A stretch of 40,011 bases of DNA from contig CAWAPJ010000003.1 of the NCBI GenBank assembly GCA_963783885.1, positions 1 to 40,011 on the forward strand, given 5' to 3'. The position numbers and the translations under genes were made by a program. Each line of letters begins with the position of its first letter. Positions within the stretch are counted from its first letter, which is position 1. This DNA comes from Waddliaceae bacterium (GTDB lineage Bacteria; Chlamydiota; Chlamydiia; Chlamydiales; SLFE01). The notes beneath the pieces are model-generated. The model did no database searches. It was given only the letters and a program-made list of their open reading frames with translations, and had not been told where the DNA came from. Below are positions 7,336-22,994 of the stretch, in pieces.

Positions 7336-8349
7336 TTACATCGAATCAGTTAACGTACCGAAATCGATGAGTACGACTCTCCCATTCTTTTGCACCAAGA
7401 CATTCCCTCGTTCATTTTCTCTTGTGGTGTTCACACCTATTTTACGGAGAAATCGAATTGCCGATCTGTACTGCGTTTCCTGCTCAGTAGATAAGGGGCC
7501 GTATTGTGACGATGTCACCCCTGGCACATATTCGAGAAGGAGCCATTTTCGATTATATAAAAGATCACTGCCATAATACTCGACGATGTTTGAATGCCCC
7601 CCTTTATGGCGGATCATTTCCAGCATTTCGTCTTCTTTATCTCTTGAATCTCTTAAAATCTTGATAGCAACAATTTTCGCAAGTCCCACCTCTTTTGCCA
7701 AAAAAACATCTCCATAGCATCCGGATGAAGATATGTGCCTGACAATGTTATAAGCCTTCCCGTCAATCATATGAGTCTTATCAGTGTTTTCCAATATCCA
7801 ATCGACAAACTTCTTTGACCCCATCAGTAATTTTGCCGGTTCTGAATAGCTTCGCTTATCAAATAAAGCTTTATAGCCGCGATAATCGTTTCGACGTTTA
7901 AGCGCCTTTTTGAATGCGGCGCCTCTTGACGCTTTATTCATTTCCCTCGATGCTTTCGCTATAAGAGCATTGACCCGCTCAACAACAGATGTCCCCTCAG
8001 CTGTGACTGGGATATCCGGATTGGCGCCTTTCTCCATCAATATTTTGATGGTGTCGACAGCTTTGTTCATCCAGGCATTATAAAGGGCGGTCTCTCCTTC
8101 GTATAGGGCATTCACGTTCGCACCGCGACATATGAGAGCGCTGATAATCTTCTTATAATCCTCTTTTTCAAGATAGTTAGTCGAACGGGAAACTGCTGCA
8201 TACAAGGGAGGGGGTGTACAACGATCGATGCGTCCATATGATGTGTTGGGATCAAGCCCTTCATCAAGCAATTTGGAAACTTTTTCAAATCGTCCGTATA
8301 AACAAGCCTGATATAAATCACTATATTTCGAATTTGTGCTGATTATCAT
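7336..8349 (-). CDS. Ankyrin-repeat protein fused to a short protein kinase-like domain
   Basis: Ankyrin motifs (LLDEGLDPN, LICRGANVN, GETALY..LMEKGANPD); kinase motifs GCYGDVF, VAIK, HSNIV, LLLEYV, NVLV and IDFG. The ATG at 8349 is preferred over 8412. Confidence 0.85.
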   Translation of the reverse strand: MIISTNSKYSDLYQACLYGRFEKVSKLLDEGLDPNTSYGRIDRCTPPPLYAAVSRSTNYLEKEDYKKIISALICRGANVNALYEGETALYNAWMNKAVDTIKILMEKGANPDIPVTAEGTSVVERVNALIAKASREMNKASRGAAFKKALKRRNDYRGYKALFDKRSYSEPAKLLMGSKKFVDWILENTDKTHMIDGKAYNIVRHISSSGCYGDVFLAKEVGLAKIVAIKILRDSRDKEDEMLEMIRHKGGHSNIVEYYGSDLLYNRKWLLLEYVPGVTSSQYGPLSTEQETQYRSAIRFLRKIGVNTTRENERGNVLVQKNGRVVLIDFGTLTDSM

Positions 8350-8426
8350 AAAAACATTGTAGAATAAAAAATTATTGATAATATTATAACATTTAGTATA
8401 ATTAAAGCCCACCTGTTTTTCCTGAC

Positions 8427-13809: not shown

Positions 13810-14382
13810 ATGAACCGGAATTTATTCGTTTTGTCTATTGCGCTCTTATTCTTATGGGGATGCGCCTCGGAAACACCGAAAGCAAAGAGCGGATGGGAGG
13901 AAATTAAGGGAAGAGACCCCGAGGTTAATGAAGCGGTATATCGCGTCCGAGTCCCCGATAGCTGGGAACGAACCGATGCTGCCGGACCGATTGAGGATAC
14001 GACAAGACCTCTTGCCGAATATCGTGTCGGCCGAGATATCCTTGTGACGCTGCACAATTTTCCCGGAATCAAAATACCCCCTGCCGCCCAAGTCATGAGG
14101 TGGAAGCGGCAGATGGGACATGCAAAAGACATTCGTACCCATCTCTGCTCTCGCGGGGGATTTGCCGGCATTCAATTTGAAAGCAGGGAGTGCCTGGCCT
14201 GGGCGATGCAGCTCGATCCTGAGCATCGCCAAAGATTATCCAACAAAAGTCCTCTTCACCGCCAAATGATGGCCGATTATACAATTAAGGCTGTCGGACC
14301 CGCTCAATCGCTTACAAAGCATCGGCAGGAAATTCTCGACTTTGCTCTATCTTTTGAACTGATTTGCGAGCTGCCCGGATGA
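13810..14382 (+). CDS. Putative lipoprotein
   Basis: Signal peptide with lipobox LWGC; its stop overlaps the next ATG (ATGA). Confidence 0.75.
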   Translation: MNRNLFVLSIALLFLWGCASETPKAKSGWEEIKGRDPEVNEAVYRVRVPDSWERTDAAGPIEDTTRPLAEYRVGRDILVTLHNFPGIKIPPAAQVMRWKRQMGHAKDIRTHLCSRGGFAGIQFESRECLAWAMQLDPEHRQRLSNKSPLHRQMMADYTIKAVGPAQSLTKHRQEILDFALSFELICELPG

Positions 14383-16403
14383 AGCTGCTGAAATTTCTCT
14401 ATCATTTTCTCGGAAGCGTCTACTTTGCAGTTTCTATTCTGGTGTGTTTGATTCTGTTTACAACTCTAGGAACGTTTATTGAGTCGTATACCGAATCGCA
14501 TTTATTTGCCGCTAATTTGACTTACCATAACCCCCTTTTTGCCTCGCTCCTTTGGATGATGTTTGTCAATATCCTTTTTGCCGCCCTAAGAAGATGGCCC
14601 TTTAAGCAAAGGCATATTCCCTTTCTCTTAACCCACCTCGGTCTACTTATGATTCTTGGAGGCTGTTTGATCAAAGCCTATTTCGGAACCCAAGGACAAA
14701 TGCTTATTGTCGAAGGAAGCGGCAGCGATGAGATAATGATTCCAGGTTCCACTGTGATCGAGCTTCAAGATGAGCAAGGAAAAGTCGAGACGTTTCCTCT
14801 CGATAAATCCCGGCAGATACCGAAGAACGAAAGACTCAAAGTTGTCGGATACTATCCTCATCATAAGTCTCAGCTAAAAATCTGGCCTATAGCGCCCGGT
14901 TGGAATGTGAAAGTTCTTGAAGAAGAAGATTTTAAGCAAGCCGTAAAAGATGAGCTCTTAAACAATCTGACTGTGAGAATACTCGACCGGAAACAAGGAA
15001 GGGTTATTGAAGAAAAGAACGTCCACGACTCAGAGTTTTCCTTCAGCTATGAAAACGGCTCATTGATTGTGGACAATCAGCTGGAAATTCCCCTAAGCGG
15101 CCCTTTGAGTTTGATGACCTTAAACTACAAGGATCATTTGCGGGGCTCCCCATCAACGCTTATTGAACTCAGCCATCCTAAAGCCGCCCTCGTTAAACGA
15201 AACAGCGAAGAAGGTTATCAGGTGACAACCATCGATCAAGCGGGAGGTATCAGAACTGAAGAGCTTTCCAGTCTTGTCGTTTATGACAAGGGTTTTGGGG
15301 GCATCTATATGCAAAGCTCGATTCCCTCTTCCGAAACCTGCAGGGAAAAAGAATTCCGCCACAAAGAAGCTTTAAAAAGAGTGCTTTCCGAAGCCTCGGA
15401 GCTGACTTTCCCATTGGAAGCGATTCGATCAGCTTGCACTCAAGAAAATTTTTCCGAAGCAGCCGTCGGCTTTTTAACCGAATGGGATTCATGCAATCAA
15501 TGGATTTTCTCTCTTGGGCACGCATTATCGAAAGAAAATTGTAAGCTGATGGACAGGATTGACTGGGATTTGATCCCTAAAGATCAGCTTAAAAGCGCTT
15601 ATTTCGCTTCTCTTCTTCTTCAGAATTTTGACGAAAATTCATTGAGCGATGCCCCCTGGAAATATCTCTTGCTCAAAGATCAACCGAAAAATACCTATGA
15701 GCAGTCGATCATTGAGCAGCTATTTCTTATCTCCTCGGACCTTCCAGAACTCCCTGACTTTAAAGATTTATCCTCTCTAGAAAAAGCAAGAGTGATGACC
15801 GTCTTACTAAGAGCTTACGGCATCCACTTAAAAAGTCTCATACCTCCGGAAGAAGAGCGTGAAAACATCGAACGCCTTGAATTGCCCGTAACCCAAGAAT
15901 ACAGCCCGGAAAAACCATCGAACAAGCTTGAAGAGAATCTCCCTCTCATCTTTGTGCAATTTGAAAATGGCAAAATAGTTCCAGCGCCATTTGACCCCTT
16001 CGGCACCGGTCTCAAATGGCCTGCTGCTGGCAGCGACTGCCTCATTCATTTTAAACCGAAGTTCGAGAAACTCCCCTGCCGCCTCAGATTAAGGAACGCC
16101 CGCGAATATCGTTACCCCGGATCCGATGAGCCTTTCAGCTACGAGGCCGATATTATCGTATACGGTTCGGACAAATCCGATGGCAAGGAAATAACTCTGA
16201 GCATGAACCACGTTTATGAAACTTGGGATGGGTATCGATTTTATCTTGCTTCCATACATTCGGAAGGTGAAATGAGAGCCAGGAAAGTCCAGCTCTCAGT
16301 CAATCACGACCCCGCCAGATATCGACTGACTTACCCTGGGGGAGCCGTGGCAGCGCTCGGAATTATTCTTCTTTTCTGGCGCCCGAAATTTTTTCGTCAC
16401 TAA
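14379..16403 (+). CDS. ResB/CcsB-like cytochrome c biogenesis membrane protein
   Basis: Three N-terminal TM segments with LGTFIES and THLGLL, a large soluble domain, and a C-terminal VNHDP motif plus TM segment. Confidence 0.75.
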   Translation: MKLLKFLYHFLGSVYFAVSILVCLILFTTLGTFIESYTESHLFAANLTYHNPLFASLLWMMFVNILFAALRRWPFKQRHIPFLLTHLGLLMILGGCLIKAYFGTQGQMLIVEGSGSDEIMIPGSTVIELQDEQGKVETFPLDKSRQIPKNERLKVVGYYPHHKSQLKIWPIAPGWNVKVLEEEDFKQAVKDELLNNLTVRILDRKQGRVIEEKNVHDSEFSFSYENGSLIVDNQLEIPLSGPLSLMTLNYKDHLRGSPSTLIELSHPKAALVKRNSEEGYQVTTIDQAGGIRTEELSSLVVYDKGFGGIYMQSSIPSSETCREKEFRHKEALKRVLSEASELTFPLEAIRSACTQENFSEAAVGFLTEWDSCNQWIFSLGHALSKENCKLMDRIDWDLIPKDQLKSAYFASLLLQNFDENSLSDAPWKYLLLKDQPKNTYEQSIIEQLFLISSDLPELPDFKDLSSLEKARVMTVLLRAYGIHLKSLIPPEEERENIERLELPVTQEYSPEKPSNKLEENLPLIFVQFENGKIVPAPFDPFGTGLKWPAAGSDCLIHFKPKFEKLPCRLRLRNAREYRYPGSDEPFSYEADIIVYGSDKSDGKEITLSMNHVYETWDGYRFYLASIHSEGEMRARKVQLSVNHDPARYRLTYPGGAVAALGIILLFWRPKFFRH

Positions 16404-17437
16404 AAATCGGAAAGATCGTCGAGCTCCTCGTCAGTACTCCATTCATCGTCGCTTTCAGCCTCTGAACTTGTTGAGCTCCATTCATCATCGGTTTCAGACT
16501 CTGAACTAGAAGTCTTGCATTCGCTTTCAGAATCTGAACTGACATAGGCGCCCTCTTCATCGCTTTCATCTCCTGAACTTATATAGCTCCATTCATCATC
16601 GCTCTCGGTAATCTCAGGTGTAAAACATTCCGAATGTTGTAATTCAACTTGTTTTCTGTAATTTCCCCCTAAGGCTCCTTTCAAGATCTGCATAAGTTCA
16701 TTTTCGCTCATCCTATTCAAATCGATAGCAGATTCTTTAGGGGTCACCTTTTTCAGATTCTTTCTTCCCTCCATAATAGCATCCCGCGACACCGGGCATT
16801 GGGGAAAATTATTTACTCCTGGCAGGCTGGCCCCGCTTTTTTTTGTGGATTGCTGTTCGGGCTGTTCTGTTTTTTTCAATTTAGCTTTTTTCGCCTGAAT
16901 TTCAGCTTCCATAAGGCTTTGTTCATGAAGCTTTTTACCTTTCTCTTTTCCTTTTTGCTCATTTTCTATAAATTTCTCGACTTTTTCCCACATAAGCGGA
17001 GTTAAATTTTTATAGACTATTTGAGCCAACTTATGATCGGTAGGAACATTTCCATTAATATTGTCGATAACAAAAGGTCTAACCATCGTTTCGATCTCTT
17101 CAAATTCATCCTTTACCCTTTGTCCAAAATATTTGTAGGTATTGCCAATCCGATCCAATTTCAAATACGCATCGGCAACTAATCTATTTGTGCGAACATC
17201 CACCATTCCCATAGTCGTTTTAAATGTTTGCTCGACAGCATTGACGACGTCTGTTTTGCCGCTTGCAAAAAACCACCAGTTACGATCCGGATCCAGTTTT
17301 CCTGTGTTGAGGTCAACGGCCAAAAAAGTATTTACAGGAAGGTTTTTTATGGTTTCCAGATTAGAAAATGCCACAGAAATTTCCATTTTATAAGCGAAGG
17401 GATTTCTTTCACATCCTTGAATATCAAGAACAGACAT
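16400..17437 (-). CDS. Putative secreted actin regulator with a WH2-WH2-central-acidic (VVCA-like) C-terminus
   Basis: Helix+LKKT, helix+LKKV, amphipathic ELMQILKGAL..RK and three DDEW motifs; AAGGAG RBS. Confidence 0.7.
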   Translation of the reverse strand: MSVLDIQGCERNPFAYKMEISVAFSNLETIKNLPVNTFLAVDLNTGKLDPDRNWWFFASGKTDVVNAVEQTFKTTMGMVDVRTNRLVADAYLKLDRIGNTYKYFGQRVKDEFEEIETMVRPFVIDNINGNVPTDHKLAQIVYKNLTPLMWEKVEKFIENEQKGKEKGKKLHEQSLMEAEIQAKKAKLKKTEQPEQQSTKKSGASLPGVNNFPQCPVSRDAIMEGRKNLKKVTPKESAIDLNRMSENELMQILKGALGGNYRKQVELQHSECFTPEITESDDEWSYISSGDESDEEGAYVSSDSESECKTSSSESETDDEWSSTSSEAESDDEWSTDEELDDLSDF

Positions 17438-17536
17438 AATGACTCCTTGTGTTAAAATAAAAACTTGTCAACGTTATTGTCGACGGTAGAGTCAATTATT
17501 TCAAGAATTATTATGCCTCGTCTAACCAATTAGACT

Positions 17537-18739
17537 TTAAGGAATTGTTAGAACAGTTCCCGGCTGGATTTTGTTTTCATCCGCGATTGCAGCGTGGTTG
17601 GCTTCCAGAATTCTCTTCCATTTACGAGTGGTTCCATAGTACTTTTCGGAAATTTTCATCAGGGTTTCTCCTTGTTGCACAAGGTGCACCCTTGGTTCGA
17701 TATCCATAACTTCTGCTGAAAAATCAGGAGTCTGCTTTCGGCTTCCCATCTGTCCGATCAGTTCGGAATACGTCTGCTGCGTCTGCTTCAGTTGCTTGGT
17801 GAGGTCCTGCCTAGAACTTTCCATTTTCTGCAATGAATCTTTCTGTTCATTTAAAGCAGCTTGAAGCTGGTCGACAATCTGTTCTTTGATGATCCGTCTT
17901 TTCTTTTCTTCCTTGTATTTATCTTCAAAAGCAACGAGTGTTTTGATGATTTCATTTTTGTCATGAACTTCCGTTTGAAGAGAGTTAATTTGAGATTTTG
18001 CCAATTCCCCGCTTTTTGTAAGAGCCGCGATTTCATCACGCAGCCCTTGTTTGTTTTTTTCTTCCAGAGACATACTTGATTGCAGCATCTCGGTCTTTTG
18101 GGCCACTTTTTTCTCCAGCAATTCTATTGTATCGGCATTTTCTTCAAGAGCTGACAGCAATGTATGATTTTCTTCTTTGAAATGAGCCAAGGAATCAACT
18201 TCTTTTTTCAATGAGGTAATTTGATCCAGAAATTCCTGTTTCCGCTTTTCTTCAATCTCCATATTTGCTTGCAGCATCTCGTCTTTCTTGATGAGAGATT
18301 TTTTTGCCTCTTCCAGTTTGGCTTTAAGTTCGATGACGGGTTGATTGAGTTTTTTTAGAGCGGCATATCCCCGTTTACTTTTTTCAAGCTCATCGGTCAA
18401 TTCCTGAATTTTGCTTTCATAAGAGACTTTATCTTCATTGCGGGATGCCAAAATATCCTTGAGATCTTCGAGCTGCCTTTCGAGCTCTAGAGCCGTATGA
18501 TCGCTTGCCCGCATTTCCGCATCGACAAGCTGGGCATCCAGCAAGTGGATAAGTTGTAAGGCCCCGCCACTTTGTTTCTCAGCATCCGAATGAAAAGTCT
18601 CTTCCTGAGTTTCTTGAGGCTTTTCCCCTTGAGTCCCCTGGATAAGCAACGCGACTAAAATGGCCACGATAGCCAGGCAAGAGATAAAGACAATCCGACG
18701 AAAATTTTTGCGAGATTGAGTATTCTGACTATCCTGCAT
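17537..18739 (-). CDS. Membrane-anchored coiled-coil protein with a C-terminal LysM domain
   Basis: N-terminal TM segment, long heptad-rich region, HLVQQGETLMKISEKYYG..W..I..AN..IQPGTVLTIP. Confidence 0.88.
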   Translation of the reverse strand: MQDSQNTQSRKNFRRIVFISCLAIVAILVALLIQGTQGEKPQETQEETFHSDAEKQSGGALQLIHLLDAQLVDAEMRASDHTALELERQLEDLKDILASRNEDKVSYESKIQELTDELEKSKRGYAALKKLNQPVIELKAKLEEAKKSLIKKDEMLQANMEIEEKRKQEFLDQITSLKKEVDSLAHFKEENHTLLSALEENADTIELLEKKVAQKTEMLQSSMSLEEKNKQGLRDEIAALTKSGELAKSQINSLQTEVHDKNEIIKTLVAFEDKYKEEKKRRIIKEQIVDQLQAALNEQKDSLQKMESSRQDLTKQLKQTQQTYSELIGQMGSRKQTPDFSAEVMDIEPRVHLVQQGETLMKISEKYYGTTRKWKRILEANHAAIADENKIQPGTVLTIP

Positions 18740-21557: not shown

Positions 21558-21965
21558 TTAAATGATTAGACGCCTAATCCCATTTTTTAGAAGTTTTACA
21601 TTGAAATTGATGAGCAAACCTCTGCCACCGCCATTATGCTTAAGATAGGATAGAAGTTGGGCCTCATGAACAGGCAAGAGATTGGCCACAGATTTTATCT
21701 CCAAAATAATCTTATCTTCCACTATCATATCGATCCGGTAGCCTGAGTCTAGCTTTTTATCACGATAAATAATAGGTACTGGTATCTGCCGGTTAACTTT
21801 CAAACCCGCAAGGTTCAACTCGTAGCAAAGACAAGTTTCGTATGTCGATTCAAGCAAGCCTGGACCTAATCTTCGATGAACTTCAATCGCAGCACCTATG
21901 ATTTCCCCTGTTAAAAGGTCATTTCTTTTTTGGTTGGCTTCTTCAGTTGTGTGGGTACTAGTCAT
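21558..21965 (-). CDS. GxxExxY protein (PD-(D/E)XK nuclease-like)
   Basis: LGPGLLESTYE, YRIDMIVEDKIILEIKSV, HEAQLLSYLK, GLLINF; GGAG RBS. Confidence 0.93.
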   Translation of the reverse strand: MTSTHTTEEANQKRNDLLTGEIIGAAIEVHRRLGPGLLESTYETCLCYELNLAGLKVNRQIPVPIIYRDKKLDSGYRIDMIVEDKIILEIKSVANLLPVHEAQLLSYLKHNGGGRGLLINFNVKLLKNGIRRLII

Positions 21966-22049: not shown

Positions 22050-22994
22050 ATGAAGGCAAAATATCGCATTCGCAACTGGAACGACTATAACAAATCTCTT
22101 ATTCAAAGGGGAAGCATAACTGTTTGGTTTTCTGAAGATGCTATCAATAAGTGGATGGCTCCAAAAGAAATAGGAAAAAAGGGGCGTCCAAAACTCTATT
22201 CTGATGACGCTATTCTCACCGCGCTCATTATTCGATCGGTTTTTCATCTTCCATTGAGAGCACTCGAAGGATTTTTGACATCTCTTGTTATGATTTTATC
22301 TGTTGGTTTATCGATTCCTTCTTATACTCAAATTTGTCGGAGAGCTAAGTTGTTGGGGCAAGAGTTGAAGAAACTTTCGAAAAAAAAAGTCACCAATATT
22401 GTAATCGATTCAACCGGTTTGAAAGTGTACGGAGAGGGTGAATGGAAAGTTAGGCAGCATGGAATCAGTAAAAGGCGAACATGGAGAAAGCTCCATCTGG
22501 CAGTCTGCCCTGACTCTCACGAAATTATTTTCGAAATTCTTACTGAAAATAACGTTGCAGATTGTGAAGTGTATCCAAAACTTCTCGAGGTAATGCCGAA
22601 ATCAGTTAAGCGCACATATGGAGATGGGGCTTATGATACTAAGCGATGCTATGCTGCAAATGTAGTTCACGGCTCAATTCCTATTATTCCACCCAATAGG
22701 AATGCTGTTTTTCGAGAAAACATATCTCCTTCTTGGAAGATGCGGAATATCAGTTTGCTGGAAATTTCAGGTTTAGGAGGTGATGATGATGCAAGAAAAT
22801 TATGGAAAAAGTTGAAAGGTTATCATCGTCGATCACTTGCAGAAACAGCCATGTTTAGATTTAAACGATTCTTTGGAAATGATTTAAGAAGTAGAACTCT
22901 GGAAACCCAAAGGGCTGAATCAAGGGCAAAATGTGAAGCACTAAATATAATGACAAAGCTGGGAATGCCTGAAAGTGAATTAATAGCAGCTTAA
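22050..22994 (+). CDS. IS5/IS903-group DDE transposase, apparently intact
   Basis: NW..YN..L..RGS.T.W, GRP..YSD, IDSTGLKVYGEGEW, WRKLH, GDGAYD, YHRRSLAET. Confidence 0.96.
   Translation: MKAKYRIRNWNDYNKSLIQRGSITVWFSEDAINKWMAPKEIGKKGRPKLYSDDAILTALIIRSVFHLPLRALEGFLTSLVMILSVGLSIPSYTQICRRAKLLGQELKKLSKKKVTNIVIDSTGLKVYGEGEWKVRQHGISKRRTWRKLHLAVCPDSHEIIFEILTENNVADCEVYPKLLEVMPKSVKRTYGDGAYDTKRCYAANVVHGSIPIIPPNRNAVFRENISPSWKMRNISLLEISGLGGDDDARKLWKKLKGYHRRSLAETAMFRFKRFFGNDLRSRTLETQRAESRAKCEALNIMTKLGMPESELIAA

Follow-up and report, generated by a model that had tools for sequence, protein, structure and literature searches.

A chlamydial protein with a WASP/RickA-like order of motifs as a candidate secreted activator of host Arp2/3

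The locus described here raises the question of whether a chlamydia encodes a direct activator of the Arp2/3 complex of its eukaryotic host. The window, meaning the whole stretch of DNA that was analysed, comprises 40,011 nucleotides of contig CAWAPJ010000003.1 (positions 1 to 40,011, forward strand) in the assembly GCA_963783885.1 of a Waddliaceae bacterium. It contains a gene, P0001, for a protein of 345 amino acids (aa), hereafter the window protein. A preliminary description made from the sequence had proposed that this protein is a WH2-WH2-Central-Acidic mimic of host nucleation-promoting factors. As described in a passage of PMC5792643, a WH2 combines a short amphiphilic helix with an extended LKKT segment behind it. 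In the corresponding module of host activators, called WCA or VCA, the V element binds actin monomers, the C element is helical and the A element recruits and activates Arp2/3 (in passages of PMC9980815). RickA of Rickettsia is a bacterial mimic of such nucleation-promoting factors, which activates Arp2/3 and is without a Sec signal (passages of PMC9569871 and PMC11077975). The window protein may be a WASP/RickA-type secreted activator of host Arp2/3 that evolved independently and carries a new N-terminal domain. This reading is given an even chance of being correct, on the grounds that look-alikes of all elements are found in the canonical order, that the protein belongs to an intracellular bacterium with a type III secretion system, and that islands of conservation stand out in a disordered and fast-evolving tail.

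At the level of motifs, V, C and A elements are found in canonical order at the C-terminal end of the window protein. The positions claimed in the preliminary description were all exact, namely two WH2-like motifs at aa 174-190 and 217-231, a Central-like segment at aa 247-262 and DDEW at aa 280, 317 and 330. I180 and L187 of the first WH2-like motif (motif a) are conserved alignment columns, and in the region of the second (motif b) the [DE]E[IL] and L.K[VT] columns are conserved in the family. The segment from aa 269 to 345 contains 30 Asp and Glu, 27 Ser and Thr and a single Lys or Arg residue. An AlphaFold2 (AF2) model was made from a 9-sequence alignment, with a mean predicted local distance difference test (pLDDT) score of 62. 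Short helices were predicted at motif b (aa 218-227) and at the C-like segment (aa 245-268), and both the stretch that joins them and the acidic tail were predicted to be disordered. The C-like helix, with a pLDDT of about 62-65, had a hydrophobic moment of 1.25, compared to a 95th percentile of 1.28 in shuffles; the value for motif b was 0.92, below that percentile.

Amino-acid composition does not account for the motif pattern of the window protein. When aa 131-345 were shuffled 20,000 times with composition preserved, the probability of at least two L[KRN]K[TV] motifs was 0.0001, that of at least three Trp residues in acidic context was 0.0003, and that of at least one L[KRN]K[TV] and at least one acidic Trp in the right order was 0.0016. 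Open reading frames (ORFs) of at least 100 aa were collected from all six frames of the genome, 3360 in total. L[KR]K[TV] was found in 105 of these and [DES][DE][DE]W in 17, and the window protein was the only one with both. It was also alone in having at least two acidic-Trp motifs. A regular expression for WH2 in the style of ELM was set aside as unspecific, with 1677 matches in 855,630 residues or about 2 per 1000 aa.

Relatives of the window protein were found by several searches. A word-indexed search of 5.8 billion proteins returned the query itself only, and a related-locus search gave no match for the window protein and only its own record for one of the orthologues (from genome G003). 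Six-frame searches revealed syntenic orthologues, between a LysM gene and a ResB-like gene, in four of the five other genomes of the same GTDB family: G001 and G002, which share the genus (g1) of the window genome (G000), and G003 and G005 of a second genus (g2). A single-protein search of 35 genomes from other families gave no match. A profile search of 400 genomes of the order gave two additional matches, in G362 and G167. The G167 match (E 9.8e-4) falls within a coiled coil rich in charged residues, part of a membrane protein of 518 aa, and was rejected as compositional. Finally, 1.84 billion representative proteins were searched with a HMMER profile, which gave 12 matches at E<=0.001, chlamydial or metagenomic only. 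Among these were five new full-length metagenome members (P0005, P0007, P0011, P0012 and P0013). The two matches with an organism label were labelled Chlamydiota and Chlamydiia, and those with a name are hypothetical proteins. The family is thus small, fast-evolving, unannotated and chlamydial.

The match in G362, a genome of another chlamydial family, is a short form that adjoins ResB (P0003/P0008; locus L014, G362:C104, 1003..1707, minus strand). The short forms, which also include P0014, are 223-234 aa long and have the same N-terminal domain, one LRKT, a PPPP tract and a C-like helix, and they end in a short acidic stretch without Trp. They may be a reduced or ancestral version of the family.

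Nine full-length members, with 17-43% identity to the window protein, were compared. Read by eye, the order of elements was the same in all nine: the N-terminal domain, one to three units of a helix plus L[KRN]K[TV], an amphipathic hydrophobic helix and an acidic Ser-rich stretch. The preliminary description had made its case dependent on conservation of both the LKKT/LKKV and the Trp residues in homologues. This was largely borne out: all nine members, down to 17% identity, have kept L[KRN]K[TV] in one or more copies, and most have kept a Trp. By eye, a Trp was found in the acidic tail of seven members, in six of them in a single column (W333), and four of the nine passed the strict acidic-Trp definition used in the shuffles. 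An Arg in or just past the C-like helix was seen by eye in 8/9 members. In the six members with both residues (G000, G002, G003, P0005, G005 and P0012), the distance from Arg to Trp, by eye, was 17-24 residues, which is matched by the spacing in WASP and WAVE. The 25 best columns of the tail, where the mean column score is 0.89, include I180, D219-A220-I221, the L.KT columns and W333. In seven ungapped WH2-like blocks, the Leu and a Lys were invariant, the last position was Thr or Val, and Ile or Leu was found 7 positions upstream in 7/7. A Pro-rich tract, for example PPPLPP or PSTPTPPQP, is present in G003, G005, P0005 and P0012, and in the sister genus it constitutes a fifth WASP/RickA element. 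The absence of a poly-proline tract pointed out in the preliminary description is therefore correct for the window protein, but does not extend to the sister-genus orthologues. The longer members (G003, G005, P0005, P0007 and P0011) have an extra conserved C-terminal segment after the acidic Trp (alignment columns 528-545), of the form Q[ED]VI..M..S..F..R[RK], which is absent in the genus of the window.

The organism is an obligately intracellular chlamydia with a type III secretion system, living in eukaryotic cells, and the chlamydial source suggested earlier was confirmed. The genome (2.16 Mb, 46 contigs, 88.9% completeness) contains five NTT/TLC nucleotide-transporter genes, with NTT found in 0/14 control genomes, and one gene for the SctV/FHIPEP export gate (745.7 bits); an orthologue of P0001 bears the NCBI name hypothetical protein [Chlamydiota bacterium]. 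No hydrophobic signal peptide or membrane segment was found in the window protein, the highest 19-aa Kyte-Doolittle mean being 0.62; the lack of a signal peptide agrees with the preliminary description. Together with the SctV gene in the genome and a disordered N-terminal tip (residues 1-14, pLDDT <50), this lack of a Sec signal and membrane segment gives the protein an effector profile.

Judged from its sequence, the window protein is probably an injected actin-remodelling protein; secretion, actin binding, and the binding and activation of Arp2/3 are all predicted properties. Delivery would most likely occur by type III secretion. The C-terminal half would then serve as a WH2-WH2-Central-Acidic output module, as in the WASP family and RickA, with the N-terminal domain of aa 15-128 lying outside the activity module. 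Each of the two helix plus LKK[TV] motifs would hold one actin monomer, docking on the host Arp2/3 complex would fall to the amphipathic helix and to the acidic motifs with Trp, and branched actin nucleation would be triggered at the entry site or at the inclusion.

A number of results weigh against a function as Arp2/3 activator, first of all those of the formal WH2 tests. A WH2 profile scan had been proposed as a check in the preliminary description, and its outcome was negative. The best match to the Pfam WH2 model (PF02205, curated cut-off 23.1 bits) was 11.7 bits, E 0.22, for a fragment of aa 165-270, located at motif a and covering model positions 17-24 only, which is the LKKT part. The model matched 0/9 whole family proteins, the window protein included, and 0/8 C-terminal halves, and six-frame WH2 scans of G000, G001, G002, G003, G005 and G362 gave no match at the loci. 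That the model can work in this clade is shown by the same scan, which gave 21.4 bits to a near-canonical WH2 of a different protein from G003. Three profiles were also compared to 177,635 PDB sequences, and none of them returned a WH2, thymosin, WASP or WAVE chain at E<=10. For the C-terminal half there were 7 matches, all unrelated and with E>=0.074, for the seven WH2-like blocks 7 matches with E 0.09-9.3, again without a WH2 protein, and for the C-A block one unrelated match with E 1.9. The window protein as a single sequence gave no match. The anatomy of the motifs is also not fully canonical. The conserved hydrophobic residue of the helix is found 7 residues before the Leu of LKKT, and in a classical WH2 this distance is 6. 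Motif a lies inside a predicted helix of 44 residues and has a hydrophobic moment of 0.40, below the shuffle median. The acidic tails of P0011 and P0013 lack Trp, having Phe or Tyr only, and P0007 lacks the Arg. In addition, the P0001-type gene appears to be dispensable, since the G001 copy is split and the gene is absent in a third genus. The G001 copy (L002, G001:C4, about 1300-2390) is split over three frames between intact neighbours. The split stems from several length differences of 1-2 bases and is either gene decay in that species or a local assembly error. Genus g3 (G004) has no P0001-type gene; at L022 (G004:C15, 952..3992) the ResB-like gene is followed directly by a DUF255 thioredoxin-like gene, and the LysM and P0001-type genes are both absent. 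These two genes behave as a two-gene insertion or deletion unit.

No RickA-type homology was detected, with 0 families matched in NCBIfam and no RickA-type protein returned by the profile search of 1.84 billion proteins. Weak Pfam matches to RTX_C (16.1 vs 30.2 bits), Derepression, EspA_EspE and LYRIC were far under their cut-offs and were rejected. By its sequence, the window protein cannot be shown to belong to the WH2 family, and it is not a WASP or RickA homologue. The likeness is one of short linear motifs, of their order and of their spacing, which points to convergent mimicry rather than homology.

A second WASP-like candidate was observed in genome G003 (P0016, G003:C48:8556-11051, plus strand; locus L141, 1057..3555). 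It is a mostly disordered protein of 832 aa that contains two long tracts rich in Pro; a near-canonical WH2 occupies aa 605-623 and precedes an acidic SDSEW. Its WH2 scored 18.2 and 21.4 bits in two Pfam scans, both below 23.1, and P0016 is present in one of the six family genomes. Kinship between it and the C-terminal half of the family was rejected (hhalign E 0.87).

The members without the Trp needed for Arp2/3 contact (2/9), and the one to three tandem LKK[TV]-type motifs present in each member, would also suit a protein that binds actin monomers independently of Arp2/3. Its tandem motifs would nucleate or sequester actin in the style of VopL/VopF, TarP or beta-thymosin, and its acidic tail would serve solubility, regulation or chaperone contact. 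The longer members have a second conserved short helix, LE.LI, after the last motif, an arrangement resembled by the extended thymosin-type form. Such a binder is nevertheless considered unlikely. It leaves unexplained why conservation is as good in the C-like helix and in the acidic tail with its Trp as in LKK[TV], and the failure of the WH2 profile applies to it equally. VopL and TarP require an oligomerisation element, and none is evident here. Chlamydiae do already have a direct nucleator in TarP (passages of PMC5792643 and PMC9569871).

A secreted and disordered effector directed at some other host target would also fit the fact that no actin-related model recognises the window protein. 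The Lys-rich motifs would then resemble nuclear localisation signals or form patches for lipid or nucleic acid, and the tail would be an acidic cluster phosphorylated by kinases, activation-domain-like or Atg8-interaction-like. The window protein does have a basic cluster, KKAKLKK, and its DDEWSYI fits the acidic W-x-x-I pattern. In the family, however, the Trp is followed by polar residues and the W-x-x-I context is not conserved, and the reading of DDEWSYI as an Atg8-interacting (LIR) motif was rejected for this reason. The basic clusters shrink in the relatives to L.K[TV] plus the upstream hydrophobic helix, rather than to runs of Lys or Arg. The fixed order of helix-LKKT, amphipathic helix with Arg and acidic Trp, and the Pro-rich tract as well, would remain without explanation, and a target other than actin is judged to be just as unlikely as an Arp2/3-independent binder.

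The N-terminal domain is the best-conserved and best-folded portion of the window protein. In the AF2 model of this family-specific domain, a helix and a beta-hairpin are followed by three further helices. The N-terminal region had been called unrecognised in the preliminary description, and neither Pfam nor NCBIfam has a family for it. A Foldseek comparison of the AF2 model with the PDB gave 0 matches at E<=0.001, the best rows being designed helical bundles and the like. DUF7746 and retrotransposon-gag clusters obtained for aa 1-135 from the ESM Atlas had scores of 0.84-0.86, below the lead level of 0.9, and were rejected as unrelated; a look-up of aa 165-345 in the same resource gave no usable match. 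The domain was also found at the head of P0009, a protein of 1812 aa encoded in the same genome (G000:C8:177418-182856, minus strand; E 5.7e-12). Beyond the domain, P0009 has one hydrophobic segment and then a coiled coil of about 1600 aa, in which units of about 50 aa recur in near-identical form. Since this unrelated membrane coiled-coil protein has it too, the domain probably functions in secretion, chaperone binding or targeting, and it may be a shared delivery or targeting module.

The ORF at 16400-17437 noted in the preliminary description is a real gene, as indicated by a Shine-Dalgarno sequence and by the syntenic orthologues. Coordinates of the gene, its neighbours and the elements of the protein are listed in Table 1. 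The ResB-like gene is located downstream of P0001 with a 4-nt overlap. The LysM gene accompanies P0001 in genera g1 and g2, and beyond it are a DUF255 thioredoxin-like gene on the opposite strand and, farther off, sucA-sucB-lpdA, so that the surroundings are housekeeping genes. The 100-bp spacer 5' of P0001 has promoter-like and terminator-like consensus matches, which are weak evidence. A search of sequencing runs for the P0001 gene matched 11 DNA-type runs from 9 studies and 0 RNA runs.

Table 1. Features of the P0001 locus and of the protein that it encodes (window coordinates).
Feature	Coordinates	Strand	Basis or remark
P0001, gene for the 345-aa protein, stop codon included	16400..17437	minus	ORF list and syntenic orthologues
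Shine-Dalgarno AAGGAG	17443..17448	minus	6 nt 5' of ATG, read directly from the sequence
N-terminal folded domain, aa 15-128	17054..17395	minus	AF2, pLDDT mostly about 86-93
WH2-like motif a, aa 173-190 (QSLMEAEIQAKKAKLKKT); SLMEAEIQAKKAKLKKT = aa 174-190	16868..16921	minus	closes predicted helix 147-190, LKKT at 187
WH2-like motif b, aa 216-231 (VSRDAIMEGRKNLKKV); SRDAIMEGRKNLKKV = aa 217-231	16745..16792	minus	predicted helix 218-227, then LKKV at 228
Central-like amphipathic helix, aa 245-268, containing ELMQILKGALGGNYRK (aa 247-262) with Arg261	16634..16705	minus	AF2
Acidic Ser/Asp/Glu tail, aa 269-345, predicted disordered	16403..16633	minus	AF2 and composition
DDEW 1, aa 280-283	16589..16600	minus	also in G001
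DDEW 2, aa 317-320	16478..16489	minus	not retained in G001
DDEW 3, aa 330-333	16439..16450	minus	W333 is the family-conserved Trp, column common to 6/9 members
C-terminal ELDDLSDF, aa 338-345	16403..16426	minus	genus-conserved: identical in G001, ELEDLITF in G002
Four degenerate tandem repeat copies, spaced 33-39 nt	16443..16606	.	repeat analysis; three copies carry DDEW
ResB-like cytochrome c biogenesis gene	14364..16403	plus	convergent neighbour, synteny anchor
Membrane-anchored coiled-coil LysM protein gene	17537..18739	minus	upstream same-strand neighbour

Elsewhere in the window, a 358-aa ORF at 7336..8412 (minus strand) has ankyrin repeats and a partial eukaryote-type kinase domain, with a Pkinase score of 30.2 bits, slightly below the cut-off of 31.7, and is a further eukaryote-like effector candidate. 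An insertion sequence-type DDE transposase gene (DDE_Tnp_1_5 / DDE_Tnp_1; 22050..22994, plus strand) adjoins a gene of the PD-(D/E)XK nuclease family (21558..21965, minus strand).

The housekeeping surroundings of P0001, with sucAB-lpdA and ResB and no effector island, could instead suit a bacterial cytoplasmic or envelope-associated protein that is not an effector, in which the N-terminal domain would be the functional part and the tail motifs would serve a bacterial partner. The high conservation and good fold of this domain, its presence in a membrane coiled-coil protein, the adjoining LysM gene and the joint loss with that gene in genus g3 would all be compatible with such a role. On the other hand, eukaryote-type linear motifs in a long disordered tail, fast divergence, lineage restriction and sporadic decay are typical of effectors, and chlamydial effectors are commonly scattered through the genome. 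A purely bacterial role is therefore regarded as improbable, more so than the two alternatives above.

The multiplied Trp motif described earlier is present in the window protein as three DDEW copies, but was not found to be a feature of the family. A DNA repeat has multiplied the acidic-Trp unit, and the tandem duplication is a recent event at the genus level. In genus g1 there are three units in the window protein, two in G001 (the first and the last) and one in G002 (CEEW), and members outside this genus have one Trp or none. Arp2/3 has two binding sites for nucleation-promoting factors, and acidic-tail-only proteins such as Arpin inhibit the complex. A decoy or inhibitor, in which three tandem-duplicated DDEW units and a single C-like helix would block the acidic-motif sites and damp the host actin response, for example in phagocytosis, is the least probable of the alternatives, as the multiplication is limited to genus g1 and the actin-delivering motifs found throughout the family favour activation.

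As an activator of Arp2/3, the window protein would be comparable to a number of known systems. The VCA regions of WASP/N-WASP and SCAR/WAVE show this order of elements, with an optional Pro-rich tract, one or two WH2s, an amphipathic C helix with Arg and an acidic stretch with one Trp near the C-terminus. In contrast to these proteins, the window protein has no profile homology to them, lacks WH1, GBD and SHD and has three Trp units, and in its family the spacing from helix to LKKT is one residue longer. Baculovirus p78/83 is a direct Arp2/3 activator of the same motif type. It is surface-anchored by the capsid, as Burkholderia thailandensis BimA is by an autotransporter and Listeria ActA by a membrane anchor, and all three drive comet-tail motility, whereas the window protein has no anchor. 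BimA and ActA are direct Arp2/3 activators of pathogens with WH2-like and CA-like short motifs (passages of PMC9569871 and PMC9980815).

RickA and the window protein have in common an obligately intracellular bacterium, the lack of a Sec signal and a non-eukaryotic N-terminal part. Behind that part RickA has WH2, a helical C element and a tail with an acidic Trp, which directly activate Arp2/3 (passages of PMC11077975, PMC9569871 and PMC9980815), and the window protein has look-alikes of these elements. They differ in that no sequence relationship was detected in NCBIfam or Pfam, the N-terminal domain is different and the WH2-like motifs are sub-threshold. The window protein also lacks the Pro-rich tract that its sister-genus orthologues have, and its route is presumably type III secretion, as opposed to the surface display of RickA. 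Wbm0076 of Wolbachia, a candidate effector of the WAS(p) family, is likewise lineage-restricted; it is a VCA protein of a bacterial endosymbiont, and its activity in yeast depends on a single conserved Arg in V, an Arg in C (R258) and a Trp in A (W280), as described in passages of PMC9980815. Wbm0076 is a RickA relative with an N-terminal transmembrane helix, unlike the chlamydial family, which has a soluble N-terminal domain and no detectable homology to it. Tandem WH2 motifs are also found in the type III effectors VopL and VopF of Vibrio (passages of PMC9569871); VopL differs in that it has three Pfam-grade WH2s, dimerises through its C-terminal domain and is without a C-A module.

TarP, TmeA and SemD belong to the same phylum and are early type III effectors that drive actin assembly at entry, but there is no direct WCA mimic among them, and the window protein had no match to any of the three (NCBIfam). 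TmeA and SemD act upstream, through N-WASP. TarP is not known from environmental chlamydiae. The actin-binding element of TarP is WH2-like, but the likeness is restricted to the helix; TarP is without LKKT and nucleates actin directly (a passage of PMC5792643). In the titles and beginnings of abstracts listed by full-text searches, and in passages of PMC9569871 and PMC11077975, no chlamydial WCA mimic was reported.

Somewhat less than an even chance is given to the fuller claim that a chlamydial lineage invented a direct WASP-type activator of Arp2/3, the first in Chlamydiota, on a new N-terminal domain shared with a giant coiled-coil protein, and that the tripled Trp unit could fill both activator sites of Arp2/3. 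Direct WCA-type activators are known from few pathogens, with ActA, RickA, B. thailandensis BimA, Wbm0076 and p78/83, and each of them has been a productive tool of actin biology. Should the reading of the window protein as an activator prove false, the family would be a warning that conserved arrangements of LKKT and acidic Trp arise for other reasons. If it is true, the family would be an additional independent instance of convergent motif mimicry, and its members, which vary from one to three in WH2-like units and from zero to three in Trp units, would provide a natural series for the question of what makes a minimal activator. For the amoeba-associated chlamydiae themselves, the family would then offer an effector of entry or of actin remodelling.

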